Position numbers and translations under genes: made by a program. The notes under the pieces are model-generated. The model did no database searches, was not told where the DNA came from, and worked only from the letters and a program-made list of their open reading frames with translations. From an uncultured virus (IMG/VR IMGVR_UViG_3300005440_000007) (taxonomy: Duplodnaviria > Heunggongvirae > Uroviricota > Caudoviricetes): DNA of 64,000 nt. Shown in pieces: positions 5,098 through 38,236 of this stretch (within the stretch, counting starts at the first letter, position 1; every line of letters begins with the position of its first letter). The stretch is from the IMG/VR virus record IMGVR_UViG_3300005440_000007, one strand, 5' to 3'.

Positions 5098-5111
5098 GGT
5101 CGACCTCCTGA

Positions 5112-7611: not shown

Positions 7612-7617
7612 GCTCTC

Positions 7618-8418: not shown

Positions 8419-8430
8419 GTCGTCCTCGTC

Positions 8431-8970: not shown

Positions 8971-8971
8971 C

Positions 8972-9709: not shown

Positions 9710-9742
9710 GCGCCGTCGAATGGCTCCGGTCGAAGCCGACTT

Positions 9743-10153: not shown

Positions 10154-10162
10154 GGATTCCTC

Positions 10163-10824: not shown

Positions 10825-10834
10825 GGCGTCTCCG

Positions 10835-11158: not shown

Positions 11159-11196
11159 GGAGACCCTCCTGAGTTTCTCTTTCGGACCGTTTCGCG

Positions 11197-11640: not shown

Positions 11641-11690
11641 GCGCCGTATCCTCCTGAACTCTTGTCGATCGTTGAAATCTTACCCCTTTT

Positions 11691-12014: not shown

Positions 12015-12024
12015 CGTCCCACCG

Positions 12025-12615: not shown

Positions 12616-12626
12616 TTTCTTCGGTC

Positions 12627-12746
12627 CTACCAGGGCGTATCCCGACGGAATGGGGGGCTTCTCTTCCTCCACCACGGGAGGACGTCCACCGCCGCCTCAG
12701 CCCATAGCTCTCGGCTTGGGCCTGACCTCTTCCTCTCGGCGAGCAT
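12627..12746 (-). CDS. 39-aa ORF, or frameshifted 5' part of the downstream gene
   Basis: GGAGGGAG RBS lying within a hairpin. Confidence 0.35.
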   Translation of the reverse strand: MLAERKRSGPSRELWAEAAVDVLPWWRKRSPPFRRDTPW

Positions 12747-12808
12747 CTCCCTCCGAACGGAGGGAAACCTGCTTTCCTCAACCAAGTCGACCAGCCATGT
12801 TCAGATTC

Positions 12809-13210
12809 CTAGAAAATGGTCTTGACGATCCCAAGCATCGTCGCCGCAAGGCTCACGATGCCGCCGAGCTTGTTGATCGGCCTGTCGGATTCTTCCTCCT
12901 CGAGGGAGGATTCCAGGGCCGCCATTCTTGCCGACGAAATCGACGCGATGGTATCCAATCGGAACACCTTTTCCACGTCGTCCCCATGAAGCGCGGGCTT
13001 CGCGGACCGGGACGCCAAGGCGACGCGTTCCATCGCGCCGCTCGAAAGAATCGACTTCGCCTCGAGAGCGAGAACTTCCACGGACGCTTGGCCGGCGAGC
13101 TCCGGTTCCTCCGACCAGAAAGAGACGATCTCTCTCGCAGCCAAGGTCACTTTGCGAGCCTTGGCCGCCAGGTAGGCGGCATCTTCCGTCGAAAATCGAA
13201 GCACGCTCAT
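12809..13210 (-). CDS. Helical protein with C-terminal TM
   Basis: Tiling; hydrophobic tail. Confidence 0.7.
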   Translation of the reverse strand: MSVLRFSTEDAAYLAAKARKVTLAAREIVSFWSEEPELAGQASVEVLALEAKSILSSGAMERVALASRSAKPALHGDDVEKVFRLDTIASISSARMAALESSLEEEESDRPINKLGGIVSLAATMLGIVKTIF

Positions 13211-13770: not shown

Positions 13771-15963
13771 CTATGAAACGGCTCCAGTCACCAGTAGAAG
13801 CGCGAGGGTCGCGCCGCTGAGTCCCGCTGCCGCCCCCAGAGGGGTCATGCCCGTCGCCCCTTCCATCCCCGGCGTATTTGTCGTCGTCGGGGGAGGCGGC
13901 ATTGGCGGCGGCGCGATTCCCGGGATCGTCCCTCCCCCGGAAGGAGGAGTCTCGGGCGCGGTGCCTCCGGGAAGGGGATTCCCATTCACGTCCGTGGGAG
14001 TTCCGCTCGAATCAGTCGGAACCACGGCCGGCCCTCCGCCACCGTTCTCGGGAACCACGGTAACCCCTCCACCCTGCTCGGTTCCCGTCTGGAGAGCCTG
14101 CTGAAATTGGTCGAGGAAATCGTCGATCGCCTGATCGACCAGGTCGACGAGCCCCATGGCTTCGACGACCCAGATCAAAAACGGCTTGAAAGCCGGAGAG
14201 ACTTCTTCGCCGGCAACGAAGCCGATCACGTCTTGTGCGGCGGCTTGCGCTCCAGCGAGAGCGTCACCGAGCTGCTCGATCTTCTCGACAGCGTACATCT
14301 TCGGAAGCGCGGCGATCGCCTTGACGGCCATGACCGCGATCGCGCTTGCGATGGTCGACATGTCGATGAAGCTCGACGCACCGTTCACGATCGTGTTCGA
14401 TCCCGCCTGAGCGGAATTCCCGGCAATCGAACCTACCGCGCTGATCGCAAGCTTCACCACCTGGGGGTAGATTGTGGTGATGGCTTTTGCAGCCAGAGGA
14501 TCGACGTCCGCCAGAATATCTTTCACAATCGGCTCGAGCGCGCCGACAACAAGGTTGGGGTCCCCTGCCGCAAGGGCAGCAGCGGCGATTGCCGACGAGA
14601 CGCCGAGCCCCAGCGGCTGGTTCCCGGTGGTCATCTTGATGAAGTCCCACGTCTCGGTGGCGAATGCAGCGAATCCTCCCGCGCCTGCGGCGATCAGGAG
14701 CGGCAGGTTGACCATCACCGTGCAGTAGGAGATGATCGCCATGGTCTTCATCGTTCGCTTCGTCTCCTCGATCTTCTTCTCGATCCTGCGCTGCATGCAG
14801 ATCAGAATCGGCTGAAGACCAAGGATGTACGCCGCGGCCATGTCCTTGGAGATCTGTTTGTCGTCTCTGGGGAAGTAGTTGCTGAACTTCTTCACGTAAA
14901 GGCGGGCGCTCACCGCACTGTAGAGTTCGTTGTTCTTCCCCTGGCCGATGGGAATCGCTCTGGCGCAAGTCTGGAAAAGCCTCTCGATCCCGGGCCATTT
15001 TGGAAACGGGATCTTCACGAAGATGTTCCAGACCTGCTCGTAGTTCTTGACGAGCTCGGGCCAGTCTTTCGGCTGAATCTCAAGATCTCCGAGCCACCAC
15101 TGGAACGTCTCGAAATGGGCTGCAATCGCGGGATGGCCGAAGTTGACCCTCGACCCGGCATCCAAGTAATTCCAGGAGACCGGAGTGTAGGTGGCCGCCC
15201 TCAGCTGAAGTTGGGCTTCGGCAACCGCGCAGACCAGGGAGTTGATATTGCTGGCGCAGGCGGCGAAGGGAATTTCACTCTTGGACGTCATGTTGTTTCC
15301 CGCCGCGGCCGCCGCGGGAAGCCTGGCGAACACGTCCACGGTCTTCGCGGATCCTCCGGGGACGGACATCGTCACGCGGTAGCGGTACTCCGTGTTCGGG
15401 CTGGGAGCTTGACCGTTCCAGACGTACTTCCCCTGAGCGTCCGTCTTTCCGCGCGCCACTTCCGTCAGGTTTGGAGCTCCAGTGGTTGGGCTGAAGTTCC
15501 TGATGTTGTACATCTGGATCACGACGTCCGCGCCGCCGATGTAGGGCTTGAGCTCGGTCGGCTCTTTCGCAATGACCGTGATCTCGGTGGGACCGTCCCA
15601 CGCGGACGACGTCTGAAGGGTTCCTCCGCCTTGATTGACGAAGGGGCTGGTATTGGTCGGAGTCGTTCCTCCGCCTGAAGCGGCCGAGCAAAGCGACGGA
15701 TCGACTTCGACGCATCCGCCGCCGGGAACCTGGGCTGCCATGCTCGGAAGCATCTGCCGGATGCCCTGGTTCCCGCAACGGTAGCACTTCAGCCCCGAAG
15801 TCCCAGCCGGCTGGGGGAATCCCCCGGCCCCAGGCAGCTGGCCGAGAGATCGGTTGCGAAGCATCGGAGGCCGTGGGGTAAGAGGCAGAAGAAACCCGTC
15901 ACGGCCCGGACCTTTCAGTCGTGCCGAAAAAGGAATCTCCAGAGACGATGCCTCACCCCACAA
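13771..15963 (-). CDS. Large LGQ-leader membrane-associated virion-type protein (730 aa)
   Basis: AGGAGGAGG RBS; RSLGQ; Ig-like segment, hydrophobic helices, C-terminal TM. Confidence 0.8.
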   Translation of the reverse strand: MWGEASSLEIPFSARLKGPGRDGFLLPLTPRPPMLRNRSLGQLPGAGGFPQPAGTSGLKCYRCGNQGIRQMLPSMAAQVPGGGCVEVDPSLCSAASGGGTTPTNTSPFVNQGGGTLQTSSAWDGPTEITVIAKEPTELKPYIGGADVVIQMYNIRNFSPTTGAPNLTEVARGKTDAQGKYVWNGQAPSPNTEYRYRVTMSVPGGSAKTVDVFARLPAAAAAGNNMTSKSEIPFAACASNINSLVCAVAEAQLQLRAATYTPVSWNYLDAGSRVNFGHPAIAAHFETFQWWLGDLEIQPKDWPELVKNYEQVWNIFVKIPFPKWPGIERLFQTCARAIPIGQGKNNELYSAVSARLYVKKFSNYFPRDDKQISKDMAAAYILGLQPILICMQRRIEKKIEETKRTMKTMAIISYCTVMVNLPLLIAAGAGGFAAFATETWDFIKMTTGNQPLGLGVSSAIAAAALAAGDPNLVVGALEPIVKDILADVDPLAAKAITTIYPQVVKLAISAVGSIAGNSAQAGSNTIVNGASSFIDMSTIASAIAVMAVKAIAALPKMYAVEKIEQLGDALAGAQAAAQDVIGFVAGEEVSPAFKPFLIWVVEAMGLVDLVDQAIDDFLDQFQQALQTGTEQGGGVTVVPENGGGGPAVVPTDSSGTPTDVNGNPLPGGTAPETPPSGGGTIPGIAPPPMPPPPTTTNTPGMEGATGMTPLGAAAGLSGATLALLLVTGAVS

Positions 15964-15978: not shown

Positions 15979-16566
15979 CTATCCGAAGAGCAGGGCGAGC
16001 GTCACCGCCCCCGCGCCGATCAGGATCGGAACCGTGAGGTCGGTGCCGCCGGCGGTGGCGGCCCCGGGGACCTGGATCTCCTTGATGATGACCTGCGGCT
16101 CCTCGAGGAGTCCGTAAGTCCTCTCCGCTTCGCTGACATCGCGCGCGAGCGCCACGTTTGCGCTCTTCACCCGGTCGAGGCGGTTCCGAGGCCGCGTCGT
16201 GTCCTGGATGAACACGTAGTAGTTGGGCGCGCCCGGGACCTTCTCGACCTCGGCGACGTACTCCTGCAGATCGTTGCGCTGGTTGAGCGCCTTGTCGTTG
16301 TTGTTCGGCTCGAGAAGGCCGAAATCCGACACGATCGCATCGCGCTCGGGCTTGTAGGAGATCCGCGAGGCCTTGTAGGCAAGCTGATCGAACGTCGCGA
16401 TCTCCGCCTTCGCCTCCTCGTACATGCGCTTGCCGTCTTCCAGGCTCAGACCCATGAAGGGCCCTCTCGCCTGGGGGCGCACGGCGGGCGGCCGATAGCC
16501 CGCCATCCGGACCGGCGGCAGAAAGCCGGGCCCGGCCATGGGCTGAAACGACTGAGCCTGGAACAT
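15979..16566 (-). CDS. Leader-variant (FMGL) helical protein with C-terminal TM
   Basis: GGAGG RBS; MFQAQSF. Confidence 0.8.
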   Translation of the reverse strand: MFQAQSFQPMAGPGFLPPVRMAGYRPPAVRPQARGPFMGLSLEDGKRMYEEAKAEIATFDQLAYKASRISYKPERDAIVSDFGLLEPNNNDKALNQRNDLQEYVAEVEKVPGAPNYYVFIQDTTRPRNRLDRVKSANVALARDVSEAERTYGLLEEPQVIIKEIQVPGAATAGGTDLTVPILIGAGAVTLALLFG

Positions 16567-16865: not shown

Positions 16866-17282
16866 CTACTTTCCGAAAGCCACGTAGAGAAGCGCCACCG
16901 CGGCAACCGCGCCGATGGCGATCGGCACGATCGGAAGTTCCGACTTCGGCGGGGGCGGGGGCGGCGGGGGCGGCGGCTTCGCGGGAGTGCCGTCGTCCTT
17001 GTACGCCTTCTTGATGTCCTGGAAGAGGTCGTAGAGGCACTTGTACTGCGAGATGAGCGGCTTCGCGATGCATTCATCGCGCCGCTTGCTGTAGTTGCCG
17101 GCGACGTCTACTGGGAGCTTGAGAATGAGCTGGTCGAGATCCCCGAGGATCGAGCCCACGTCACCGCCGGTCAGGTCGTCCAGAAAGTTCCCCACGAAAG
17201 GCTGCTGGCCCATCACGACGCGCACGGCCCGGACGCCGTAGGACGGCCGGAAAGGAGATGCCTGGAAAAGCGATCGGCTCAT
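16866..17282 (-). CDS. MGQ-leader protein with poly-Pro linker and C-terminal TM
   Basis: LFQASPFRP...VVMGQ. Confidence 0.8.
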   Translation of the reverse strand: MSRSLFQASPFRPSYGVRAVRVVMGQQPFVGNFLDDLTGGDVGSILGDLDQLILKLPVDVAGNYSKRRDECIAKPLISQYKCLYDLFQDIKKAYKDDGTPAKPPPPPPPPPPKSELPIVPIAIGAVAAVALLYVAFGK

Positions 17283-18498: not shown

Positions 18499-18558
18499 GG
18501 TCGTTTTCCTCCCGCCTGCCGGAACAAAAAATCTTTTCGACGAGCAGACCCCTCTCGA

Positions 18559-18810
18559 CTACTTGTCCTTCTTGAGCGACTCCTCTTCCTGGGCGATCAG
18601 CTTCCGAAGGCCCTGGGCGGTGCCGAGCCGGATCTTCTTCGTGTCGTCCTTGAGCTTGGGATCCGCCTTGACGTAGGCCTCGTACTCGCTCGTCATCCCC
18701 GACTCGAGCGTGTACTGCTTGACGCCGTCATGGTAGGCCGATTCCCGGGACAGGCTTCCGCAGCAGCCGACCATGAAGAGCGCCAGGACGCCGGCAATCA
18801 GGCTTCGCAT
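18559..18810 (-). CDS. Putative lipoprotein
   Basis: Signal peptide ending in lipobox-like MVGC. Confidence 0.65.
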   Translation of the reverse strand: MRSLIAGVLALFMVGCCGSLSRESAYHDGVKQYTLESGMTSEYEAYVKADPKLKDDTKKIRLGTAQGLRKLIAQEEESLKKDK

Positions 18811-18965
18811 TTCGGTTCTCCCGCTTTCGGATTCACGATCTCCAGGACCGCCTCGAGTTTCTCGTCGATCTCCACAAGCTTCGCATCCGTCGCCTTTTCG
18901 GACGTCAGGAAGATCTGAACGTCCAGGAGCTTCCTGCGAATGCTTCGTTCAACTTCCTCGTCCAT
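18798..18965 (-). CDS. 55-aa hypothetical protein
   Basis: Fills the gap; MDEEVERSIRRKLLDVQIFL. Confidence 0.6.
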   Translation of the reverse strand: MDEEVERSIRRKLLDVQIFLTSEKATDAKLVEIDEKLEAVLEIVNPKAGEPKCEA

Positions 18966-18967
18966 CT

Positions 18968-19327
18968 CTACACCGGACGCCCAAGAACCTTGAGCTGGAT
19001 CGGCTGCTCTCCGCTGTTGAGGATGATCTTCATGTAGGACCCGGTCGGCTCGAGGCTCACCGAAATGATCTGCTCGCCGTCGGGGCCGGCCGCCGATACG
19101 AGCGTCGTTGTCTTGACGAACGGGCCTGTTCCGGTCGGTCCCTGAAAAACGTCGATCGAGAATGGGGCTCCGGCGAAGGCAAGGAAAAGGATCCGCGCGT
19201 AGCCCTCGACCTTTCGGACCTTGAACTCGATCGTGGCTTCCGCCGGCTCGGTGGCGGAAAGGACGAAGAGCACGTCGTCCTTCTGACGCGTCTGGATCAC
19301 GAAGTTATGGTTTCGTCCGTTCGGCAT
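18968..19327 (-). CDS. Small all-beta protein, candidate jelly-roll penton/vertex protein
   Basis: Alternating hydrophobic strands; lies next to the capsid candidates. Confidence 0.45.
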   Translation of the reverse strand: MPNGRNHNFVIQTRQKDDVLFVLSATEPAEATIEFKVRKVEGYARILFLAFAGAPFSIDVFQGPTGTGPFVKTTTLVSAAGPDGEQIISVSLEPTGSYMKIILNSGEQPIQLKVLGRPV

Positions 19328-19337
19328 CGTCGCCTCG

Positions 19338-20006
19338 TCAATCGCTCGCGATCAAGTAGATCAGGATCGTTCCCACAGACAGGGCGCCGAGCGCTACCAG
19401 GATTCCGGAAGCATCCAGAAGTTCCTTTTCCGAGGGCTCGAGCACCTGCGGAGCCTTCTCCGTCGACACCATCAGGCGCTCCGCCGAATCGCGAAGAGAC
19501 TTGAGATCCTCGACGTAGGAAAGCAGGTGTTCCTCGGCGAGGCCCTCATGACCGCTCGCAATGGGCTCGGAAAGCTGCTTGGCCTGGACTTCCAGGGCTT
19601 CCAGGAGAGATCTCGTTTCGTCCAGAGAAATGTTCACGTCCTCGGACGCGTAGGTAGAAAGCGGTCCGCTCAGGATGCTTCCGGCCACCTCGGCCATGGC
19701 GCGTGCGACAAGAGCCACCTGTTCCGCCAGTTCCCCGGTGGCGAAATCCTGGCCGACGAGAGGAATGCCGACCCGCAGCGCGGGGTCCTGGGACACCTCG
19801 AGCTCCCCGACGAGCCGGTCCGCACGAAGCTTGAGCTCGACGGCCAGCTCGCGCACGATCGAGTCGATCTCGGCGGTCTGATTGGTACGCTCGTATTCGT
19901 TCGAAGGCTGGCCGAGCGCGGGGCCGGTCTGCACCCATCGAGCCGACAGGGGATCTCTCCCCGCCGGCTTGGCCAGGCCCCGGACGACTTCAGGAGGCAT
20001 CCTCAT
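19338..20006 (-). CDS. LGQ-leader helical protein with C-terminal TM
   Basis: PALGQ. Confidence 0.75.
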   Translation of the reverse strand: MRMPPEVVRGLAKPAGRDPLSARWVQTGPALGQPSNEYERTNQTAEIDSIVRELAVELKLRADRLVGELEVSQDPALRVGIPLVGQDFATGELAEQVALVARAMAEVAGSILSGPLSTYASEDVNISLDETRSLLEALEVQAKQLSEPIASGHEGLAEEHLLSYVEDLKSLRDSAERLMVSTEKAPQVLEPSEKELLDASGILVALGALSVGTILIYLIASD

Positions 20007-20010
20007 CGGT

Positions 20011-20649
20011 CTAACAGGTCGACCACACGACCGCTTTCACATGGAAAAGCGCCGGGCTGAAAGGATCGTGGTTTCGAGCGGACAGATCGAAACCGGCCCC
20101 AGGAGCCAGCACGATGCGCCGGACCTGGGAGAAAACGCCCTGATCGCTCGACGATCCGGGACCCGGTTCCCCGGGCGGGCAGAAGGATTCGCTGAAGCCG
20201 GGAAGCTGGAGGGATTTCGAGAAGACTTCCCCGGATTCCCACGCGGTCAGGTTCGCCGCGATTCCCTCGAGAAAGTCGACGACGAGGGAGCGGTGCTGCG
20301 GCGCGCAGAGCTTGATCAGTACTTTCGTGGAGGGAATGATCTCATCGTCCGGATTGTTCGGCTCGGGAGTCGGATTGATCTCAGCTGGAGGGACTTCCAC
20401 CATGTCGTCGAACGACGTCACGATGTCGCAGATGCCCGGGCGGTGGGCGCCGGCGGGCTCGAAAAGCCCCAGCGCGCAGAGGAGGGACACCACGTCACCG
20501 ATGCTGACCGGGTCGGTCTTGAGAGCCCACGGAAGAGTGGGGGACTGCTTGGAGCGTCCGTGGCACCAGGCGCAGTAAACGGCGACGGGGATCTTCGCGC
20601 AGGCAGTGGCCCAGGCGTCGATGCCTTCCTGGACGTTGGGATCTGCCAT
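20011..20649 (-). CDS. Candidate second/minor single-jelly-roll capsid protein
   Basis: C-terminal strands IVLAPGAGFDLSARN...FHVKAVVW parallel those of 20745-21467. Confidence 0.45.
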   Translation of the reverse strand: MADPNVQEGIDAWATACAKIPVAVYCAWCHGRSKQSPTLPWALKTDPVSIGDVVSLLCALGLFEPAGAHRPGICDIVTSFDDMVEVPPAEINPTPEPNNPDDEIIPSTKVLIKLCAPQHRSLVVDFLEGIAANLTAWESGEVFSKSLQLPGFSESFCPPGEPGPGSSSDQGVFSQVRRIVLAPGAGFDLSARNHDPFSPALFHVKAVVWSTC

Positions 20650-20679
20650 CGTGAGGGTCTCCGTCGACTCTGGAGTGAA

Positions 20680-20726
20680 GAGGCTAGGGGAGGGGCGCTA
20701 CACGCGCCCCTCCCCCTTCAAGCCTC
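20680..20726 (-). terminator. Strong hairpin downstream of the major capsid candidate
   Basis: 12-bp perfect stem GGGGAGGGGCGC / GCGCCCCTCCCC. Confidence 0.7.
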
Positions 20727-20744
20727 AGAGTTCACCGCCCTGGA

Positions 20745-21467
20745 CTACCCCAGGTTGGCGGGGCCGTAAGCGGGACCCGCGCCGGGGCCGCTCATCGGCG
20801 CCACCGCGCCCGCCTCGACCGGAGCCGAGAAGGACGGCTGGCAGGGGTAGTTGACCGGGTAGGCGGCCTGCTGCGCGTCGAGCGCGCCGACCGAGAACAG
20901 GCAGCCCTGGCGGACCTTCGTGGTGTAGTTCACGAGGATCACGCCCGCGACGACGTTGAGGTCGCCGCCGCCGGTGGGGATGTTGGACAGCGACGCGTGG
21001 ATCTCGGTGCCGTTGGGCAGGAAGAACATCTGGCACATGCCCAGCAGGCCGAGCTCGCAGTCGCAGCCGATCAGGATCCGCACCTCGTCCGTCGGCTGGC
21101 GCGCGATCAGGCACGCCGGGCAGAGGAGGTGGTTGTTGATCGCCGAGTTCTTGATGACGGGCTCGCCGTCGATGTCGAAGTTGAGCAGCGACGTGACGAA
21201 CTGGCTGGCATAGTCCAGCGTCATGTCGTTGTAGACCTCGACGAACGGCATCACGAACATCTGGGCGTCGCACACCTGGCTCTTGGTGGTGTGGTTCAGG
21301 ATGTCCGTCGCCGCCAGGACGCCGCCGGGGGTGGTGCCGGTCGCGATGACCGTGCGCTGCTTGACGTCGGCGCGGCCCTCGCACCGCATCGCGTAGGCGG
21401 CGCACGCGTTCGGGTTGATCAGCGCCGCGTACTCGGGGCTGATGAAGCGATAGTTGTTGGCCTGCAT
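20745..21467 (-). CDS. Candidate major capsid protein (single jelly roll)
   Basis: Beta-rich, 240 aa, almost all codons G/C-ending, own structured leader and downstream hairpin. Confidence 0.55.
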   Translation of the reverse strand: MQANNYRFISPEYAALINPNACAAYAMRCEGRADVKQRTVIATGTTPGGVLAATDILNHTTKSQVCDAQMFVMPFVEVYNDMTLDYASQFVTSLLNFDIDGEPVIKNSAINNHLLCPACLIARQPTDEVRILIGCDCELGLLGMCQMFFLPNGTEIHASLSNIPTGGGDLNVVAGVILVNYTTKVRQGCLFSVGALDAQQAAYPVNYPCQPSFSAPVEAGAVAPMSGPGAGPAYGPANLG

Positions 21468-21637
21468 AGTGCCCTCAAAGTGAAAAAAGAGAAACCTTGG
21501 GGGTTTTCTTCACGACACGAACTTCACGTCCCGGCGCAGCTAAGGCGGCCACCTCACTTCAGGTGGGCGCTTTCACTGCGCCGACTTCACTTCACTTCGA
21601 CGGCACGTCACTGCGGAGAGGTACTGCGGAGAATGCC
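21468..21637 (-). promoter_or_regulatory. Structured leader with repeated GAAGUG motif
   Basis: CGGCGCAG/CTGCGCCG stem enclosing CCACCU-GAAGUG-AGGUGG. Confidence 0.5.
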
Positions 21638-22336
21638 CTACGCCACGCGCTGCGCGACCACGCGCGGAACGCCGGCGCCGCGGCGCGCTTCGGCGATGCG
21701 GGCCTGGACCTCGGCGAGCTTCCGCCGGGCCGCGAGCACCGCGTCTCCGTTGCCGCCCGCCAGAGCGGGGACCCCGCCCGCCAGCGCGGGCTTCGCGCCG
21801 AGCAGGTTGGTCTTCCCGATCGCCCACTCGGTGAGCGATCCGGCCAGGAAGAAGAGACCCGGCAGAGCCACGCCCACGGTCATGGCGTTCTGCTTCACGA
21901 GGTAGGGGATGAGCCCCACCGCGAAGCCGATCGCCTCCGTGGCGAGCTTCGACTGGGTCTTGACCAGGCCCGGCACGACCCACGTCACGACGCGGTTCGC
22001 GACCGTGCCCACCAGGCCGCCGACCAGGAGATCCTTGCCGGTCTCCCGCAGACTCTGCGGAAGCTTCAGCATATCTCCCAGCTTCCAGTTGCCCGAGCCC
22101 AGGCCGCTCGAGAACCGGTTGGCCCACGACGGCCGATAGCCGCCGTACATGCCGGGGCGGTAGCCGCCCGAGAACCGCGACGACCGCGACCCGCTCGTGA
22201 CGTTGGCGCCCCGAGCCTTGTCGTTCCCGGCCATCCGGATCTGTTCGGCGACTTCCGAGCGGACCTGCGCGGTGCTCTGCGCCACGCGATCCTCGGTGAC
22301 GTTCACGCCACCGTCGCCCTGCAGCTTGTTCTTCAT
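21638..22336 (-). CDS. Candidate major virion membrane/core protein
   Basis: GGAGG RBS; strong codon bias; TM helices and basic tails. Confidence 0.7.
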   Translation of the reverse strand: MKNKLQGDGGVNVTEDRVAQSTAQVRSEVAEQIRMAGNDKARGANVTSGSRSSRFSGGYRPGMYGGYRPSWANRFSSGLGSGNWKLGDMLKLPQSLRETGKDLLVGGLVGTVANRVVTWVVPGLVKTQSKLATEAIGFAVGLIPYLVKQNAMTVGVALPGLFFLAGSLTEWAIGKTNLLGAKPALAGGVPALAGGNGDAVLAARRKLAEVQARIAEARRGAGVPRVVAQRVA

Positions 22337-22388
22337 GCTGCCCTCCAATTACGAGCCGGACGACAGGTCCGACCGTGTTGCGATCAAT

Positions 22389-22417
22389 ATTATGCGGTCC
22401 AACTCCCGGAAAAACAA
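22389..22417 (-). promoter_or_regulatory. Putative promoter of the capsid operon
   Basis: TTGTTT-17-CATAAT. Confidence 0.5.
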
Positions 22418-22429
22418 TCGGAATCGGTT

Positions 22430-23170
22430 TTAGCCGGCAATCATCAGGAGGACCGCCGCAGCGCCCGCGATCGGAAGTCCGACCTTGAGGGCGTCCTCGA
22501 GCCCCGAACTTGCGAGCCCCGCACCGACTTCCTGCGCGCCGGGAGGAAGCTGGTTGTTCGCCGGAGGCGGCGTCGTATTGGTCGGAGGGTTTCCCTGCAG
22601 CGCTTGCTGCACTGCGTTCTTGAGCGGATCTCCGCCCTTCTGCTGCGCCTTGTTGAGAATATTTTCGTTGGCCTTTTTCTCGTCGGCCGATTTCTGCGCG
22701 GGCGTCTTCGTCACGTCCAACGCCTTCTTCACCTCGCCGAAGATGTTTCCGATTCCCTTGAGAAGAAGACCTGGAACGGAGAGGCCGAACTGGATCACGG
22801 CCTTTCCGACGAGAAGCAGCTCCGACGCGAGAACGCCGATGATGGGAATGTTCTTCAGGAATCCGGCCAGTCCGTCGAAGAGGACGCCCACGCCCTTCGA
22901 CGCCAGGTCGAGGGGCACGTTGATGAGCGATGCGAGATTCTTGAAGAGGAACTCGAACGCGCCGGCAAGAAATGACCCCACGCTGGCCAGAAAATCAAGC
23001 TGACCCAGCGTGGGACCGGGTCCATGCGGCCGCGGATATCTCGCCGCCAGAAACGGCCTGTTGCTCGAGGTGAGCGCCCGCCGGGCGCTCCCGAGTTCAA
23101 TCAGCTCGATCGCGCCGAGCCGCACGGGATAGGCTTTTGAAGCCGGCGCCACGGCGTTCTGGAGCATCAC
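22430..23170 (-). CDS. LGQ-leader amphipathic-helix membrane protein
   Basis: PTLGQ; C-terminal TM. Confidence 0.8.
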   Translation of the reverse strand: MMLQNAVAPASKAYPVRLGAIELIELGSARRALTSSNRPFLAARYPRPHGPGPTLGQLDFLASVGSFLAGAFEFLFKNLASLINVPLDLASKGVGVLFDGLAGFLKNIPIIGVLASELLLVGKAVIQFGLSVPGLLLKGIGNIFGEVKKALDVTKTPAQKSADEKKANENILNKAQQKGGDPLKNAVQQALQGNPPTNTTPPPANNQLPPGAQEVGAGLASSGLEDALKVGLPIAGAAAVLLMIAG

Positions 23171-23934
23171 AGCGGCACCTCGTATTCTTCATAGGCGTCG
23201 AAACGCGATTTGTCGCCGAGCCGGAAACTGGGCTCGGTGATGTCGCAGTCGTACCATTCTCCGTCGGCCTGGACCTTGGCCCAGGTGTGGTGGAGAGTTC
23301 CGCCGTCGCCGCCGAAGGCGAAGGCGACGGGCGTGATGTCGATCGCCGCGGCCATCGCGCAGATGATGGTCGCGGCTTCGTCGCAGTCTCCCACGAACAT
23401 CGGCTGCGCCGCGATGGACCGGCGGTCGAAGTTGGGATTCTCCTGCTCGAGAGCGCTGTAGAACGGCTCCATGAAGTGTTCGAGAATTTCCCGCGGCACG
23501 CGCGTGGAACGCACCATGCGCCTGGGCGTCTGGAGCATCTCGATCCCTGCTGGGTCGTTCTGGTAGAAGAAGTTCTGACGGCACCAGATGTCGATCCCCT
23601 CGAGAGCGATCGTCTTGTTGTTGTGGACGTCGATGGGACGACCTTCTTCCTCGGAAAGCTGCTGGACGATTTTGGCCCAGCGGGATGCCGCCTGGCGCGC
23701 GGCGTCGATGACGACCGGATCCCGGCGGGCTTCGGCCACGTACTTCGCCATGCGCCCGATCTCAAACCGGATCCCGTCGAAAGTATCCGGGAGGGCGGTG
23801 CGGATGATTCTTCCCTCGCCGGGAGCTGGGGCGTCGATCGCCTTTCGGCGCTCGCTCGTGTAAAGCGGCGGCGTGGTGATTGCCCGGCCCAGCCGGTAAG
23901 ACATCCCATAACGTCCGGCCAAATGATGAGCCAT
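23167..23934 (-). CDS. Transglutaminase-like Cys-His-Asp enzyme (protease or cross-linker)
   Basis: GDCDE, HHTW and WYDCD motifs. Confidence 0.8.
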   Translation of the reverse strand: MAHHLAGRYGMSYRLGRAITTPPLYTSERRKAIDAPAPGEGRIIRTALPDTFDGIRFEIGRMAKYVAEARRDPVVIDAARQAASRWAKIVQQLSEEEGRPIDVHNNKTIALEGIDIWCRQNFFYQNDPAGIEMLQTPRRMVRSTRVPREILEHFMEPFYSALEQENPNFDRRSIAAQPMFVGDCDEAATIICAMAAAIDITPVAFAFGGDGGTLHHTWAKVQADGEWYDCDITEPSFRLGDKSRFDAYEEYEVPL

Positions 23935-23947
23935 GGCGCTTCCTCTG

Positions 23948-26158
23948 TTAGGCCGCGTTGACGGTCACCTCAGGCTTCGGCTCCTCCGCCGACACTTCGG
24001 CCTGAAGGGCCGGAGCGGGCGGAATCGTCGGACCCTGCGACTCCTGCTGTGGCTGCTGCTCCACCTGCTCGATCTGCGGAGCACTCGGCATCGCGGGCTG
24101 AATGCCCTGCTTCGCCGCTTCCACTTCCGCCTGCTTCTGGGCGAAGTACATCTTCCAGTAGTCGCGCACGCTCTCGACCACCATCATCTTGAACTGATTA
24201 TAGAAGACTTCGGCGTGCGGCGTTTCGAAGATCGGATGGAGATTCTGCGGAATTGCGGGCTTGAGGAAATCGTACATCTCGGCCCAGGTCCTCGTGGACA
24301 TCTCGTCGACGAAGTAGCTGCAGGCCTTCCGGATCTTGAGCGCCTCGACGGTGCCGTCGTCGCGCATCAGCTCCATGAACATGTTGGAGAAGACGCCGGC
24401 GTCGTTCCCCGCCTGAAGCTGCTTGGACCACTTGGAGATCATGTTGACGAAGACCGGCTCGCGCGCGAGCTGGCGGATCACCATCTCGGGGGTCTGCTCC
24501 TGGCCGTCGGGTCCGACGACCGTCTGCTGTGCGGGATGACCGTTGCCGGTCTTGGGCCCCTGCATCGCAGCGGGCGGTTCCGGCGTCTTCTGGGAGATTA
24601 GGCCCGGAGCCTGGGTGACGTTCGCCGGCGCGCCGGGCTGGGCCGACGGAGTGCCGCCCGCCGCCTTGGCGAGATGCTGCTCGGCGCTCACGGCTTCGAT
24701 CTTCTTGAGGTCGACGACCTCCTTGACGGTGCGTTCGATGCCCTCGACCAGCTTCGTGAGCACCTTGGAGATGTCCTCGTTCTGCTGGCCCTTGACGAGC
24801 TCCTCGCGCAGCTTGAGCATGTCTTCCTTGAGCTTCTGCTCGTTGTCGAGGTGCTTCTCCTTGAGCTCGTGCTCGCGCTTGAGGCCTTCGCGCTCCTTTT
24901 CGAGTTCGGCCTTGACGGAAGCCTGAACGGCCTCGATATTTTCCTCGTTCTCCTCCTTGGTCTCCTTGAGTTGCGTCATGAACGTCGCGCGATCCTCCTT
25001 CGCCTCGGCACGGGCCCGATCGAGTTCTGCCTTGAGGGCGTCCTCGCGGATCTTCGCCTCTTCGCGCATGAGGGCGAGACGCTGCTTCTCGAGTTCCATG
25101 ATGCCGTTGCGGGCCTCGCGCTCCTGGGCGATCCGCGCATCGTTCTCGATCTTGATCCGTTCCATGTCCCGCTTGTGCTGGGCCTCGCGCTCCTGCTCGC
25201 GACGGTCGTACTCGGCACGCTCGGCCTTCCGCTCCTCGTCGCGGCGGGCACGCTCCTGGGCTTCACGCTTTTCGGCGGCAGCCTGCTGCTCCTTGAGGAA
25301 GTCGGTGACGACCGACTGCGGCTCGCGCTCGCGGTCGCGCTCCTTCTCCATGCGGTCCATCTGCTTCTCATTGATCTCGGCCAGCTTGTTGACCGCGGTG
25401 ACCGCGATCGACTCCTGGGCGGAGAGGCCGGTGCGGGCGACGTCGGCCACCTGCCGGTTTTCCGGCTGATAGGAGCGCACGTCCATCTGCGGACGATAGA
25501 ACGGACGCGGCGGCAGGCGATCGTCGTCTTCGGGCGTTTCGGCGCGACCCGCGAGGAACCGGCTCGGACGCTGCTGAGAATCGGGACGACGATTCGGATA
25601 GCGCGGCTCGCCGTACTGGAGTGAGATGATGATGTCGCGATACGTAGGGAGCTTCGTCCCTTCGCGCCGCACAATCCTGTAGGTGCCCGAGCCGAATCTC
25701 TTTCCGATCTCGTCTTCGGTGGGCTCGGTCTGCGTGACTTCAAGGACTCCGTCTCGAGGCTCGATGCGTTCGAGCTTGTATTCGATCTGCTGCGTGGGGT
25801 GGGTGAATCCGTCCGCCGCGCCGATCATCGGACGCCAGCCCTGATCATCGAGAGCCGAAGGCGCGACAGGCGCAGGAGCGCCGATCGGAACGGGTGCAGG
25901 AGACGGGTTCATGGAGCCCTCCGGTTGAGAAACCTTGGGAGGAAAAAGAGAGGGACCGGCCGGACGCTGCGGCGGGGGACGCCTGGTTCCTTCGGCGGAA
26001 CCGGGCAGCTGCCCCTGCCGGACGGCATAGCTGATGGATCCGGAAACACGAAGAGGGTCGATGTTGAGTTGCTTGCCGATCTCCTTTGGCGCCATGCCCT
26101 GACCGGCAAGTTCCACGATCTTCTCGCGCTGTTCGGATGTCAGCTTATTCTTCGGCAC
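23948..26158 (-). CDS. HTH plus long coiled-coil protein
   Basis: N-terminal HTH LTSEQREKIVEL..PKEIGKQLNI; E/R/K-rich coil; GTG after GGAGG. Confidence 0.8.
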   Translation of the reverse strand: MPKNKLTSEQREKIVELAGQGMAPKEIGKQLNIDPLRVSGSISYAVRQGQLPGSAEGTRRPPPQRPAGPSLFPPKVSQPEGSMNPSPAPVPIGAPAPVAPSALDDQGWRPMIGAADGFTHPTQQIEYKLERIEPRDGVLEVTQTEPTEDEIGKRFGSGTYRIVRREGTKLPTYRDIIISLQYGEPRYPNRRPDSQQRPSRFLAGRAETPEDDDRLPPRPFYRPQMDVRSYQPENRQVADVARTGLSAQESIAVTAVNKLAEINEKQMDRMEKERDREREPQSVVTDFLKEQQAAAEKREAQERARRDEERKAERAEYDRREQEREAQHKRDMERIKIENDARIAQEREARNGIMELEKQRLALMREEAKIREDALKAELDRARAEAKEDRATFMTQLKETKEENEENIEAVQASVKAELEKEREGLKREHELKEKHLDNEQKLKEDMLKLREELVKGQQNEDISKVLTKLVEGIERTVKEVVDLKKIEAVSAEQHLAKAAGGTPSAQPGAPANVTQAPGLISQKTPEPPAAMQGPKTGNGHPAQQTVVGPDGQEQTPEMVIRQLAREPVFVNMISKWSKQLQAGNDAGVFSNMFMELMRDDGTVEALKIRKACSYFVDEMSTRTWAEMYDFLKPAIPQNLHPIFETPHAEVFYNQFKMMVVESVRDYWKMYFAQKQAEVEAAKQGIQPAMPSAPQIEQVEQQPQQESQGPTIPPAPALQAEVSAEEPKPEVTVNAA

Positions 26159-26233
26159 CTCTACCTCCAATAATGAACGCGAGGTCGATCCTCGGGTTCT
26201 ACCACCACTCCACCTTCAAGGTCAAGCCTCACT

Positions 26234-26518
26234 TCAGTCGACAAGGTCGATGAAGAGGAAGGTGAGGCCCACTCCAACGACGCTGGCGGCTGCCCCGAAC
26301 GTCAGGGCGCCGAAGGGTTTCGAACGATGCGAATAGGTGGTGAGGGCAAGCGCCACGCCCGCGCCGATCACGGCAAGGTTGACCCATCTTGGCCACCAGG
26401 GGGTTGTCTTTTCGGCGACGATCCCCTGGCCGAGATTCGGCCTGAAGCTGTGAGCCATGCGGGGCGGCCTGAACGAGGCGAGATACGGCCCCGGCACATA
26501 GACCGGAACGGTGACCAC
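26234..26518 (-). CDS. LGQ-leader 2-TM protein
   Basis: RPNLGQ. Confidence 0.7.
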   Translation of the reverse strand: MVTVPVYVPGPYLASFRPPRMAHSFRPNLGQGIVAEKTTPWWPRWVNLAVIGAGVALALTTYSHRSKPFGALTFGAAASVVGVGLTFLFIDLVD

Positions 26519-26625
26519 GGTTGGATTCTAGCTCACCAGGTCCGAACAAGCAAGCCGAACCTCAGAGCTATCAGGCCTTTGATCCGGGGTCGGAACCAGG
26601 CTCAGGAGGTTCGAAAGAATGAGGC

Positions 26626-26886
26626 TCAAGCCCCGTCTCTCTCCCTCTGGAAATCCGGCAGTTCAGCCCACATGACCGCCTTGTCGACGGCTTCCTTGAG
26701 CTTCTTGACCTCCCCGGCGCTGAACCTCTCGTTGTAGGTCTTCTTGACCGCGGAAAGGGGAAAGGGCAGCTCCACCTCGAGCTCGACATGGCCGTCCTTG
26801 TACCCGTACTTTGCCTTCACCTTCTCGCTGAAGGCGACCTCATACGGAGGCCCCATCTTGATCTCGGGCTTCGTCGCGCTGCTCAT
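26626..26886 (-). CDS. Hypothetical protein
   Basis: AAGGAG RBS; ATGA overlap. Confidence 0.7.
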   Translation of the reverse strand: MSSATKPEIKMGPPYEVAFSEKVKAKYGYKDGHVELEVELPFPLSAVKKTYNERFSAGEVKKLKEAVDKAVMWAELPDFQRERDGA

Positions 26887-27587
26887 CGCCGGACTCCTTG
26901 CTTGAACGTCGTTTTCCTGCCCTCCCTCCACATCTCGATCGACCGCCCGAGGGGCAGGGAGCCGGGCCAGACGATCTCGCCAGGACATCCTTCGGCGGAA
27001 CAGTCCGCACGAAGGAGGGTAAGCGCCTCTTTACCGGTCGACTCGTGGTCGTACCGGACCTGCTCGATGGCCTCCTCGATCGCGCGCCGCGCGTCCTCGA
27101 CCGAGTCGTAGGTGAACTTTCCAACCTCCTCGATCGCCCCGCCATAATAACCAAGGATGTCGCGCGGCCGGTAGGCGGCGCCATCCTTGATCAGTTCTTC
27201 AGCATCGAAGACAAAGCCGTTCGGGAAGTTGTACCAGTCTCCGATCGACAAAAAGATGCGCTCGAAATCCCCGGCGATCAGATCCAGGCAGTTGAACATC
27301 GTGTGCGTCGTGCCCTTTTCCGGCAACAACGAGATCTTCTCGTTGGCCATGATCGTAAGTGCCTCCCTCGCCTCGGGACCGAAGCGACCGCGAGAGAGCT
27401 CTCGAATGCTGTGGGCACCCTGAGCTTCTTCGGTAAAGCACTCGTTGTACATCTCTCGACGCTGAACACGCTCGATCGCGGGAATGATCTCTCCGAGCCT
27501 GAGGATCTGCGCGAGGAAAGTTTTTCGCTCGGCGGGTGTCTTGTCGTCCCCGCCGACCTGGTGGTAGGCTTTGATGAGCTTCGCCAT
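26883..27587 (-). CDS. Possible ADP-ribosyltransferase-fold protein
   Basis: AYH...IL.LG.I.P...IFLS...EIVW layout. Confidence 0.45.
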   Translation of the reverse strand: MAKLIKAYHQVGGDDKTPAERKTFLAQILRLGEIIPAIERVQRREMYNECFTEEAQGAHSIRELSRGRFGPEAREALTIMANEKISLLPEKGTTHTMFNCLDLIAGDFERIFLSIGDWYNFPNGFVFDAEELIKDGAAYRPRDILGYYGGAIEEVGKFTYDSVEDARRAIEEAIEQVRYDHESTGKEALTLLRADCSAEGCPGEIVWPGSLPLGRSIEMWREGRKTTFKQGVRR

Positions 27588-27630
27588 GAACCCTCGGATT
27601 GTAGCACGGGTTCTTGTAGAATCCATCCTG

Positions 27631-28065
27631 ATGGCGGATCATCCAAAGTGCTCCGGATGCCAGAAACCTCTCGAGGAGCGGGAGGGGATCCAGGTCTGGA
27701 AGTCGATTCTCTGCTCCACTTGCTTCATCGACAACGCGGGGAAGTTCCACAGGCCGCTCACACCCGACCAGGTCGCACTGCTGAAGATGATGGGCCGGCA
27801 GCTGGCCGGACATCTACCACCCGATTTCCTTGAAATTATCCTGGTAGGCTTCTGGCGCCGCAGCACCGGCAAAAACGACGCGCCGCCGGCGGAAGAAATG
27901 GCGCTCGTGGTCGGCGAGATCCAGCGCCTCGCGGCTTTCTCCAACCTCACCAAGACCATGAATCTCCTCAAGACCTGGCACAACCTCTTCAACGAGTTCG
28001 TCGAAGAGCAGGAAGAGGAGATCCGATCCACGATCAAACGTCTCACCGATATCGACCAGGCGTGA
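27631..28065 (+). CDS. Zn-finger protein
   Basis: CxxC..CxxC; TAGAAT shortly upstream. Confidence 0.75.
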   Translation: MADHPKCSGCQKPLEEREGIQVWKSILCSTCFIDNAGKFHRPLTPDQVALLKMMGRQLAGHLPPDFLEIILVGFWRRSTGKNDAPPAEEMALVVGEIQRLAAFSNLTKTMNLLKTWHNLFNEFVEEQEEEIRSTIKRLTDIDQA

Positions 28066-28120
28066 TATACTCCGCTCCGGAGAATGCTCCCCCCGGAGCG
28101 TACTCCCTGTTCCCACAGCC

Positions 28121-28159
28121 ACGGGCGGGGTCCCATCAGCCCCCGCCCGTTTCTTTTTT
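28121..28159 (+). terminator. Intrinsic terminator
   Basis: ACGGGCGGGG / CCCCGCCCGT plus T tract. Confidence 0.85.
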
Positions 28160-28174
28160 GAATCCCAAATTCGC

Positions 28175-28203
28175 TTGACAGATTGCCGTATACGGCGTAG
28201 ATT
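28175..28203 (+). promoter_or_regulatory. Sigma70 promoter with CGTATACG operator
   Basis: TTGACA-17-TAGATT; palindrome at 28187-28194. Confidence 0.85.
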
Positions 28204-28209
28204 TAGCCT

Positions 28210-28395
28210 TGTGAGCACCGGACGACGTGAACTTCGCGCTTCCCAAGGGCTGCACCGCCAGCAACACCATCTTGTGTTGTTCGGTGCTCACATCCCGGAC
28301 GCAGGTGGCGGGGAAATGACGGTGCAGTCCCTGGAAGGCGCGGCGGGTCGAGGCCGGGCGTAGGAGGAACGCCCCGGCCGGGGCCCGAAACCCCC
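28210..28395 (+). ncRNA. Structured 5' leader RNA of the replication operon
   Basis: Two long crossing complementarities plus hairpins. Confidence 0.55.
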
Positions 28396-28409
28396 AAAAC
28401 GGACGTGGT

Positions 28410-30236
28410 GTGAAAATGTCGATGGGTGCTAGGCCGAACGCCGTACCGCAGGGTCCCAAGACCAGCCAGACCAAGGACATCAATTCCAAGCTCCCCGCCC
28501 CGTGGCGGTGGACGGCCCAGGACGTGCTGGGCTTCTTCCCGAAGGCTTTCCAGCCCCGCGAGCAGCAGGTCTCGGCGATCAAGCAGATCGCCGACGCGTT
28601 CTCGTCGGGTAAGAAGTACGCCGTCCTCGAGATGCCCACGGGCGGCGGCAAGAGCTTCATCTGCTACTCGTTCGCCGACTGCGTTCGCGAGCACGGCGGG
28701 ACCCACTTCCTGACCATCCAGAAGACCCTTCAGGATCAGTATCAGCGTGACTTTCCGGCGCCCCAGATCGAGGCGCTCAAGGGCCGCTCGAACTACTCCT
28801 GCACCCATCCGGCCGCGACGAAGGGCATGGACGCGGCCCACGGCGTCTGCACCGCGCGGAAGAAGGGCATCCTTCTCGAGTGCGTCGACGTGGACAAGTC
28901 CGGATGGCTGGACTTCGACGAGGACGGAAATCCCCGCGGCATCCTGCGCGCCGCCGGACAGCTTGAGCTTCCGGCCTGCGCTCACCGCTGCCCGTACTGG
29001 GAGCAGCTTCAGAAGTGCAGCGACGCGGGCGTGACCCTCTTCAACTTCTCGAGCTTCCTCTTCCAGAAGAGGATCGGCCGGTTCGGCAAGCGCACTCTCA
29101 TGATCATCGACGAAGGTCACAACGTCGAGGCAGAGCTCATGAAGTTCGTCACGGTCGAGCTCTCCGAATGGGCGCTCTCGCTCGTCGGCATCAAGATCAC
29201 CAAGACGATCTCCAGCAAGGAGCAGTTCACGGAGTGGCTCCGGGAGACCGACCTGCTTCGCCTCGTCCAGGAGGCCACTAAGGCCGCCGAAGAGACCGAA
29301 GACGATCCCGAGGGCTTCGGCAAGGAAGAGGCGGACGCCCTCCGCGAGCTTCAGATGAAGATCGAGAATTTCATGGCCTACCTGGAGAAGACCCAGTGGG
29401 TCCTCGAAACCGTCGCCTATCAGGATCGCAACGGCGACGACCGGCGCAAGATCGTGGCCCGGCCCCTCTACGCGAAGGACTTTGCCGAAGATCTCCTCTT
29501 CCGGCATGCCGATCATGTCCTCTTCATGTCGGCGACCATCCTTGACGTGAACGTCTGGGGCACGAATCTCGGGATCAAGCCCGAGCATCTCGAGCACGTC
29601 CAGAGCCCCTGCGACTTCCCGGTCGAGAACCGCCCGGTCTTCCTCGAGTACGCCGGGAATCTCGGCTACAAGTACTTCACTCCGGAGCAGAATCCTTCGA
29701 ATCCCACGAAGCCCAAGTTCATCCACAAGATCAAGCAGATCATGGCCCGCCACAAGGGGCAGCGCGGCCTCATTCACTGCCACTCGTTCGAGTTCTCCAA
29801 GATCCTCAAGTACGAGGTGGCGGATCCGCGATTCCTCTTCCAGGACGACTTCAAGGGCGACAAGTCCGCGATGCTGGCCGCTCACTCCAAGCGCGAGGAC
29901 AGCGTCATCGTCGCCCCGGCCATGCACGAGGGCTTCGACTTCAAGGACGACCTCTCGCGCTTCCAGATCCTGGCGAAGGTCCCTTGGCCCAGCATGACGG
30001 ACAAGGTGATCAAGGAGCGCATGAATCTCGACAACCGCTGGTATGCGTGGCTCACCGCGCTCAAGATCGTGCAGAGCATGGGCCGCTCGGTCCGTTCGAA
30101 GACCGACTGGGCCTACACCTACATCATCGACCAGGGATTCGACGGGTTCCTCGGCCGGAACGGCCAGATGATCCCGCGCTACATCAAGGACGCGTTCCAC
30201 AAGTACGCGCCCAAAGAGGAAATCCGGAGAGCCTGA
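28410..30236 (+). CDS. DinG/XPD-family SF2 helicase
   Basis: PREQQ, EMPTGGGKS, LKGRSNY.C, CPY, IIDEGH, MSATI, QSMGR..R. Confidence 0.9.
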   Translation: MKMSMGARPNAVPQGPKTSQTKDINSKLPAPWRWTAQDVLGFFPKAFQPREQQVSAIKQIADAFSSGKKYAVLEMPTGGGKSFICYSFADCVREHGGTHFLTIQKTLQDQYQRDFPAPQIEALKGRSNYSCTHPAATKGMDAAHGVCTARKKGILLECVDVDKSGWLDFDEDGNPRGILRAAGQLELPACAHRCPYWEQLQKCSDAGVTLFNFSSFLFQKRIGRFGKRTLMIIDEGHNVEAELMKFVTVELSEWALSLVGIKITKTISSKEQFTEWLRETDLLRLVQEATKAAEETEDDPEGFGKEEADALRELQMKIENFMAYLEKTQWVLETVAYQDRNGDDRRKIVARPLYAKDFAEDLLFRHADHVLFMSATILDVNVWGTNLGIKPEHLEHVQSPCDFPVENRPVFLEYAGNLGYKYFTPEQNPSNPTKPKFIHKIKQIMARHKGQRGLIHCHSFEFSKILKYEVADPRFLFQDDFKGDKSAMLAAHSKREDSVIVAPAMHEGFDFKDDLSRFQILAKVPWPSMTDKVIKERMNLDNRWYAWLTALKIVQSMGRSVRSKTDWAYTYIIDQGFDGFLGRNGQMIPRYIKDAFHKYAPKEEIRRA

Positions 30237-38222: not shown

Positions 38223-38236
38223 AATTCGAACGACTC

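Follow-up and report, generated by a model that had tools for sequence, protein, structure and literature searches.

In sphaerolipovirus-like viruses, the packaging ATPase is encoded beside the capsid genes. The jelly-roll, membrane-containing viruses of bacteria have genomes of about 10–20 kb and, to our knowledge, all bacterial viruses above a few tens of kilobases are tailed phages with an HK97-fold head. Vertices of the PRD1 type consist of a small jelly-roll penton protein and a spike with a similar N-terminal domain and a collagen-like stretch. The nearest published analogue found for the locus described here is the capsid-like single jelly-roll (SJR) locus of the Borgs, giant extrachromosomal elements of Methanoperedens archaea (PMC12660748). 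In that report, the Borg SJR protein is described as small, highly expressed, structurally nearest to the capsids of HCIV-1 and the sphaerolipoviruses and encoded in a conserved cluster with hypothetical proteins; several SJR paralogues and many glycosylation genes are also mentioned, and the packaging machinery is given as unresolved (PMC12660748). No bacterial element of this kind was found in the published literature, mostly at abstract level.

The locus in question covers positions 18968–22336 of a 64-kb stretch of DNA (G+C 62%) from an uncultured virus (IMG/VR record IMGVR_UViG_3300005440_000007). This whole stretch is referred to as the window. It belongs to an undescribed family of very large virus-like DNA elements from soil bacteria. 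The proteins encoded at the locus, apparently the most strongly expressed and most conserved ones of the family, resemble shell, membrane and fibre-anchor components of a tailless particle more than those of an ordinary tailed phage. The preferred reading, held tentatively and at a little less than an even chance, places here the core of the virion ("late") module of a giant virus-like element whose host is a soil bacterium and whose particle has a membrane and no tail. The features that carry this reading are the following:

145–27626, minus strand: whole minus-strand module, about 35 open reading frames (ORFs) without known families (Pfam, PHROGs)
18968–19327, minus strand: 119-amino-acid (aa) domain protein, candidate anchor for fibres and spikes (domain distribution in relatives)
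20011–20649, minus strand: 212-aa Cys-rich protein with a helical N-terminal part and a jelly-roll-like C-terminal domain (predicted model)
20686–20716 (approximate), minus strand: hairpin rich in G+C behind the 240-aa gene, probably a terminator or a stabiliser of the mRNA (13-bp stem, folding energy, covariation)
20745–21467, minus strand: 240-aa Cys-rich jelly-roll protein, candidate major shell protein (codon bias, conservation, AlphaFold model)
21584–21598, minus strand: GAAGT three times in tandem, upstream of the 240-aa gene; candidate for a regulatory site specific to the element (repeat cluster)
21638–22336, minus strand: 232-aa membrane protein, its gene with the second strongest codon bias in the module (G+C at third codon positions, GC3, 0.92; two hydrophobic segments)

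According to this reading, the particle would have no HK97-type head with tail but would be built from jelly-roll proteins around or under a lipid membrane. Its main shell subunit would be the 240-aa protein, with a single jelly-roll core stiffened by conserved cysteines and a flexible tail. The GAAGT repeats would serve this protein as a regulatory region of its own for abundant production, and its message would end in the conserved hairpin. The main membrane protein would be the 232-aa product of the gene just upstream, and the many tail-anchored proteins of the module would populate the membrane. A second shell or vertex subunit may be seen in the 212-aa protein. Through the 119-aa domain, either alone or as N-terminal part of collagen-like and tailspike-like proteins, fibres and spikes would attach to the particle. 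Finally, packaging of the DNA would fall to an FtsK/HerA-type ATPase whose gene lies outside the window.

The 240-aa gene, its predicted fold and its partners

The 240-aa gene (20745–21467, minus strand) has a GC3 of 0.98, the maximum of the window. The second highest value on the minus arm is that of the ORF upstream, at 21638–22348 (minus strand, 0.92); most other ORFs of the window lie at 0.69–0.90. The strongly codon-biased pair of the preliminary description is thereby confirmed. The real start of the second ORF is probably the ATG at 22336, behind a GGAGG, which corresponds to the 232-aa membrane protein. In relatives, 30 ORFs homologous to this protein are found directly upstream of the 240-aa homologue.

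The 240-aa gene is also the best conserved of the family. Its 91 homologues, all metagenomic, share 52–99% identity where full length; for most neighbouring genes the identity is about 30–40%. Six cysteines are invariant in the family and two are nearly so. The 240-aa profile is matched by 100 clusters at 50% identity, with no match to the protein among 50,697 phage records. No relative was found in 185,579 species genomes either, as expected of a non-chromosomal element.

Downstream of the gene, the predicted hairpin was confirmed. It has a 13-bp G+C stem, and the 111 nt around it fold with −57.2 kcal/mol (z −3.24). The same gap carries an 11–14 bp hairpin in all 17 related loci examined (two of which are identical), and the stems differ in sequence with the pairing kept. 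The claim that the pair has its own promoter stood only in part. No sigma-70-like promoter was found in 18500–23500 (0.4 expected), but a regulatory repeat is present upstream: the GAAGT cluster is the only one of at least three units in the window, with 0.025 expected in shuffles. In the window and most relatives (loci L030–L059), the 240-aa gene is preceded at 60–120 nt by tandem (T)GAAGT repeats, and at least two GAAGT are found in the 190 nt upstream of the homologue in 12 of 17 relatives. The cluster and its recurrence point to a regulatory element, from which a promoter can be inferred; the repeats may be bound by a late regulator that the element itself encodes. Contigs from RNA libraries (four libraries, three studies) cover mainly 19955–22662, that is the 240-aa and 232-aa genes, and little else of 18 kb. 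As these runs were chosen by their match to the stretch and such libraries may contain DNA, the contigs only hint at transcription and cannot rank expression.

An AlphaFold model of the 240-aa protein, based on a 59-sequence alignment, predicts one single beta sandwich over residues 13–204 (predicted local distance difference test, pLDDT, 74.8; core above 90), followed by a disordered C-terminal tail rich in Ala, Gly and Pro. The predicted fold is a viral-type jelly roll. In the structure search, 35 of the 50 chains among the matches listed are viral capsid or cement proteins, including those of HHIV-2, SPV1, P23-77 (VP16/VP17), HCIV-1 and SH1. The sole Foldseek match at E ≤0.001 is a capsid entry of SPV1, with a template modelling score (TM-score) of 0.31/0.39, a root-mean-square deviation of 4.5–8 Å and 8% identity. 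The structure scores do not show kinship with any one family. The family profile gave 0 matches at E up to 10 against all PDB sequences. The matches in BFVD (9 at E ≤0.001) were uninformative, all with a query TM-score of at most 0.34 and mostly unnamed. A lead towards the PM2 coat protein (P2_N and P2_C, families carried by the nearest named Atlas clusters) was dropped at a score of 0.78, below lead level; for this lead, Pfam returned nothing at E up to 1.

The structure matches also include the jelly rolls of the STIV turret and of A223. These speak for a different assignment within a tailless virus, in which another ORFan of the module, with a double jelly roll or a new fold, is the true capsid protein and the 240-aa protein makes up an outer turret, a lattice or a layer associated with the membrane. 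Its core is moreover small for the shell of a 350-kb genome, and the models cover two of the roughly 35 module ORFs without known family; a conserved collinear block of such ORFs lies at 6229–13210 (36969–44706 in the related record G002, introduced below). However, the only module ORFs of double-jelly-roll size (730 and 740 aa) contain membrane segments or a helix-turn-helix with a coiled coil, and both the expression proxies and the conservation single out the 240-aa gene. This assignment is considered rather improbable.

In the model of the 212-aa protein, residues 77–211 form a sandwich whose best matches are jelly rolls. Two of the three proteins for which the preliminary description had suggested AlphaFold and a structure search (20745–21467 and 20011–20649) are jelly-roll-like in their models. 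The parallel C-terminal strands that it had noticed in the two proteins could also be recovered: both quoted peptides are present and fall on predicted strand-turn-strand elements (residues 148–150 and 155–161 in the 240-aa protein, 175–181 and 186–193 in the 212-aa protein). A sequence similarity between the two proteins was not detectable (BLASTP E 0.25; hhalign probability 0.3%). The term "paired single jelly-roll" consequently holds for the adjacent position and the fold class of the models, but not for descent.

A hydropathy scan revealed no hydrophobic leader on the 240-aa, 212-aa and 119-aa proteins, which fits assembly inside the cell. The missing leader also bears on the possibility that no virion is made at all. 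The family would then be a giant plasmid-like element with a disulfide-linked surface fibre or coat, similar to the Ena appendages of endospores, with collagen-like tips and with glycosylation genes to decorate it. Ena subunits are about 110–120 aa long and have an N-terminal Cys connector. The proteins of the locus fall outside the Ena family, and the Ena structures match no better than unrelated jelly rolls. Neither the window nor the 349-kb relative described below contains a Pfam match to Ena, pilus, secretion or conjugation families. Furthermore, the family is absent from the species genomes searched, and the tRNA array, the release factor, the RNA-repair set and the D5-type primase-helicase are virus-like. 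A surface coat without a virion is accordingly given a low probability.

A profile search for the 119-aa domain in relatives found it alone, as tandem paralogues, or as the N-terminus of proteins of 245–1008 aa. One of these fusions is a collagen-like protein that matches tail-fibre families along most of its length (phrog_6320, 3.8e-38). Another contains a tailspike-like stretch (phrog_2234, 5.2e-12). The domain is a candidate adaptor that docks fibres and spikes to the particle, judging from this distribution.

The 349-kb relative and the search for tailed-phage hallmarks

The remainder of the contig was stood in for by a relative, represented by two IMG/VR records (G001 and G002) that both end inside the 240-aa gene. 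Positions 1–153,090 of G001 correspond to 113,401–266,490 of G002 at 99.999% identity (153,090 bases), and the last 82 bases of G001 are the first 82 of G002, resulting in a circle of about 349 kb. A further family member is found on a 352,816-bp contig. The window ORFs of 20745–30236 are collinear with 225–236 kb of G001; many ORFs of 145–20649 have homologues in G002 at 0–95 kb and are partly collinear with them.

The window has only one copy of the 240-aa gene. In five related loci (L050, L051, L053, L054 and L056) it is duplicated in tandem, and other paralogues make up a subfamily of 303–359 aa and a distant one of 190–290 aa. In G001, a member of the distant subfamily is located 22 kb from the main copy. 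Since tandem copies exist, the join of G001 and G002 inside the gene may hide a further one. Many related contigs break inside or beside the 240-aa gene, as do the ends of G001 and G002, probably because the gene is near-identical between co-occurring strains or copies.

On the circle, 538 ORFs were called. Pfam was run on all 271 of at least 140 aa, and PHROGs on 201 of these that were picked by eye, mostly without a clear Pfam family. In these sets, nothing was assigned to a terminase, portal, HK97 capsid, sheath, tube, baseplate or tape-measure family. Six-frame searches that read through stops gave no Terminase_6N, TerL_ATPase, Phage_capsid or Pox_A32, and a relaxed Pfam search on 47 ORFans (including 24 large ones of the relative) added nothing. 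Head, tail and packaging families are likewise absent from the window (Pfam on 70 ORFs, PHROGs on 54 ORFs), and no ATPase family was found in the minus-strand module with the same two libraries. That the window lacks head-tail genes and a packaging ATPase, as had been stated from the sequence, is borne out by these searches.

The relative does encode a 603-aa ATPase of the HerA/DUF87 type (Pfam 1.3e-11; weak HerA matches in PDB sequences) at 189,056–190,867 of G001, about 47 kb from the module. Over its ATPase part it matches phrog_2666 (4e-11), a family labelled terminase large subunit. For the rest of the contig, the preliminary description had set an FtsK/A32 ATPase against terminase and portal. 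In the relative, the profile searches detected a HerA/DUF87-type ATPase, but no A32 and no clear terminase or portal.

These results bear on the most obvious competitor, a huge tailed phage whose HK97 capsid, portal and terminase are too diverged for profiles or split in the gene calls, and whose jelly-roll proteins serve as decoration, cement or fibre parts. Large terminases are normally detected by these libraries, yet none appeared in the 271 ORFs or in the six-frame terminase searches. The only portal signal, of 13.1 bits in a 212-aa frame, was rejected, and no sheath, tube, baseplate or tape-measure family accompanies it. Moreover, the highest conservation and the strongest codon bias would not be expected in the gene of a decoration protein.

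A recoded stop codon was considered as the cause of missed genes. TAG is the stop of 24 of the 82 called genes of the window, and the relative encodes a tRNA with anticodon CUA that would read it (L011:13483–13556, G001). Release factor 2 (RF2; L021:8454–9407, G002) is conserved across the family, with 59% identity on the 352,816-bp contig. Read-through of TAG changes the coding density from 0.846 to 0.868 in the window, from 0.803 to 0.803 in G002 and from 0.832 to 0.833 in G001. Without a gain in the relative, hidden recoded genes are unlikely, and any recoding would be partial or stage-specific. Overall, the tailed phage is regarded as unlikely.

The relative further contains 46 tRNA genes, most of them in one array (L017–L019, G002 51.6–84 kb), as well as ribonucleotide reductase, peptide deformylase, RF2, RNA ligases, Thg1, Ro60 and an integrase. 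Three collagen-repeat proteins follow right after the 212-aa homologue, and a fourfold GT2 glycosyltransferase is found together with many other sugar and methyl transferases. Two adjacent thioredoxin-domain proteins (L021:11009–12100, G002), taken together with the Cys-rich 240-aa and 212-aa proteins, hint at element-encoded disulfide control. The ORF L011:5361–5903 matches phrog_1383, "virion structural protein" (3.1e-36). It was not counted as structural evidence: an ORF with a weak nicotinamide phosphoribosyltransferase match is found at a distance of 3.3 kb, and 310 phage records of many kinds contain homologues.

Support for the virion-module reading comes from the expression proxies, the conservation and the fold class, from the missing export signals, from the tail-anchored proteins and the fibre fusions, and from the failure to find the hallmarks in the 349-kb relative. 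The HerA/DUF87-type ATPase adds to these, as does the virus-like accessory set of 46 tRNAs, RF2, peptide deformylase, RNA-repair genes and many glycosyltransferases. A precedent is provided by the highly expressed, capsid-like SJR locus that the published description reports on Borgs (PMC12660748). Three points weaken the reading. The structure scores are at background level; the confidence of the models is moderate, and each model covers a single chain; and the hallmark search was performed on a relative and by profiles, which can miss very divergent members.

Other features of the module and the window

The window is divided into two arms. The minus-strand arm (145–27626) comprises the module of about 35 ORFs, and the plus-strand arm begins near 27.6 kb. 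On the minus arm, 32 ORFs were scanned and none reaches the Pfam cut-off; only one ORF (4016–4831) has PHROG matches, which are weak. A hydropathy scan found at least one hydrophobic 19-mer in 19 of the 35 minus-strand ORFs, close to the 20 or so membrane proteins counted before; nine of these 19 have C-terminal anchors. These nine tail-anchored proteins, each with one hydrophobic segment only a few residues from its C-terminus, are an unusual concentration. The further features of the arm are:

4657–5295, minus strand: tail-anchored protein (this and the other tail-anchored proteins by hydropathy scan)
12025–12675, minus strand: tail-anchored protein
12809–13210, minus strand: tail-anchored protein
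13771–15963, minus strand: tail-anchored protein
15979–16566, minus strand: tail-anchored protein
16866–17282, minus strand: tail-anchored protein
19338–20006, minus strand: 222-aa tail-anchored membrane protein (hydrophobic residues 202–220; five homologous ORFs in relatives)
22430–23170, minus strand: 246-aa membrane protein with a C-terminal anchor, part of a conserved block (hydrophobic residues 103–121 and 227–245; 22 homologous ORFs)
23167–23934, minus strand: 255-aa protein with a weak transglutaminase-core (Cys-His-Asp) signature (Transglut_core E 0.029, residues 180–231, below cut-off)
23948–26170, minus strand: 740-aa protein with an N-terminal helix-turn-helix and a long, charged, coiled-coil-like middle (sequence; weak helix-turn-helix matches)
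26234–26518, minus strand: tail-anchored protein

The 255-aa protein has 32 homologous ORFs, often in tandem pairs, and its Cys-His-Asp pattern was seen by eye. A role in maturation, as a protease, or in cross-linking is possible. The 740-aa protein contains a Pro/Ala-rich stretch and a middle part rich in Glu, Lys and Arg; it has 15 homologous ORFs and is conserved at the head of the module. Its homologue in the relative matches phrog_3855, a helix-turn-helix DNA-binding protein (4.3e-9). It might link the DNA to the particle or act as scaffold.

Two more parts of the arm are shared with the relative. The ORFs at 6229–13210 (minus strand) form a collinear block with 36969–44706 of G002, consisting of about eight ORFans with 31–43% identity; this block is likely a core morphogenesis set. 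At 1917–2372 (minus strand), a 151-aa protein with three hydrophobic segments shares 76% identity with its G002 homologue, far above its neighbours, and is the second most conserved module protein seen.

The plus arm carries a replication and DNA-handling set. Pfam identifies a DEAD_2-type helicase, AAA_24, a D5-type primase-helicase, an HNH nuclease, an RNase T exonuclease, an AAA protein, a Mom-like protein and a ResIII helicase. For the 551-aa AAA protein (49146–50801, plus strand), the match to phrog_29662 (2.1e-76) spans the full length; it also shares 35% identity with a protein of AR9 and PBS1, which are jumbo phages of Bacillus. The Mom-family protein (3.1e-20) is encoded at 54499–55431 (plus strand); Mom is responsible for DNA modification in phage Mu. 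A weak match to the PARP catalytic domain (1.2e-4, below cut-off) lies at 48089–48610 (plus strand), and a GP88-family protein (1.4e-25) at 62735–63814 (minus strand).

Host, habitat and comparison with known systems

Several observations suggest a bacterial host. RF2, peptide deformylase and a Tat signal in the relative are of bacterial type, and Shine-Dalgarno-like motifs precede 37 of 66 called genes, where random positions give 24%. Among named cellular homologues of RF2, the nearest (45–49% identical) belong to WOR-3, Pseudomonadota and Planctomycetes. One family member, on an 8.7-kb contig, is labelled as part of a Planctomycetota metagenome-assembled genome, which is weak host evidence. 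The G+C content of the family is 58–62%; Borgs are low in G+C. At least 92% of the sampled words of the stretch are present in 14 soil or rhizosphere DNA runs (2011–2025), 6 of which are possibly the source of the window and have to be excluded from any count. Together with the 100 clusters of the 240-aa family, these runs speak against a rare family. Phage surveys that rely on markers miss it, as it has none of the usual ones.

The analogy with the sphaerolipovirus-like viruses (HHIV-2, HCIV-1, SH1 and P23-77), drawn in the preliminary description, holds for the fold class, the adjacency and the richness in membrane proteins. Here too, two adjacent genes give single jelly-roll-like models. 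As to the internal membrane of these viruses, the 19 of 35 ORFs with hydrophobic segments give at most an indirect hint. The analogy fails for sequence, gene order and size. The PDB profile search found no sequence or profile homology of the 240-aa protein to their capsid proteins, and the HerA-type ATPase of the relative is located some 47 kb away, whereas an FtsK/HerA-type ATPase lies beside their capsid genes. Their genomes are about 16–31 kb, against 64 kb for the window alone and about 349 kb for the relative. SPV1, with capsid protein VP4, is a small archaeal virus, and its match is the weak one given above.

A likeness to the PRD1-type vertex may be seen in the domain of about 120 aa that occurs just downstream of the shell gene, both alone and as N-terminus of collagen-like or spike-like proteins. 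As to the marks of the double jelly-roll viruses (PRD1, PM2 and the giant eukaryotic viruses), Pfam detected none of their capsid families among the scanned ORFs, Pox_A32 was not found in the six-frame search, and the 240-aa model is a single sandwich. The jumbo phages of the Caudoviricetes share the genome size, the tRNA array, the release factor, the RNA-repair and nucleotide-metabolism genes and one AAA protein (AR9, PBS1). They differ in that no terminase, portal, HK97 capsid or tail genes are detectable in the window or the 349-kb relative.

The preliminary description had also suggested a larger, possibly undescribed lineage; as a whole, its interpretation is supported in part. The relative is about 349 kb in size, and no bacterial counterpart was met in the literature found. 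It is doubtful that the family forms a new high-rank lineage of giant bacterial viruses, with genomes of about 350 kb, widespread in soils, and with tailless, membrane-containing particles of a Cys-cross-linked single jelly-roll protein that carry fibres via a small adaptor domain. If true, a 350-kb bacterial element with a jelly-roll particle would break the size rule of the tailed phages and would be the first bacterial virus of such size outside them. Genome gigantism would then have arisen on a second capsid architecture in bacteria, as a counterpart of the gigantism of eukaryotic giant viruses that is also suspected in the archaeal Borgs.

With the Borgs, as far as their published description goes, the family shares the very large size, the mostly hypothetical genes, the SJR paralogues and the glycosylation genes (PMC12660748). 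The codon bias and the synteny would fit a highly expressed SJR protein in a conserved cluster. Borgs are archaeal and linear with terminal repeats, whereas the present family has a bacterial-type RF2, deformylase, Tat signal and Shine-Dalgarno-like motifs and appears circular at about 349 kb. If the virion-module reading is correct, the family would offer a bacterial parallel to the capsid question of the Borgs, and maybe one that is easier to test.

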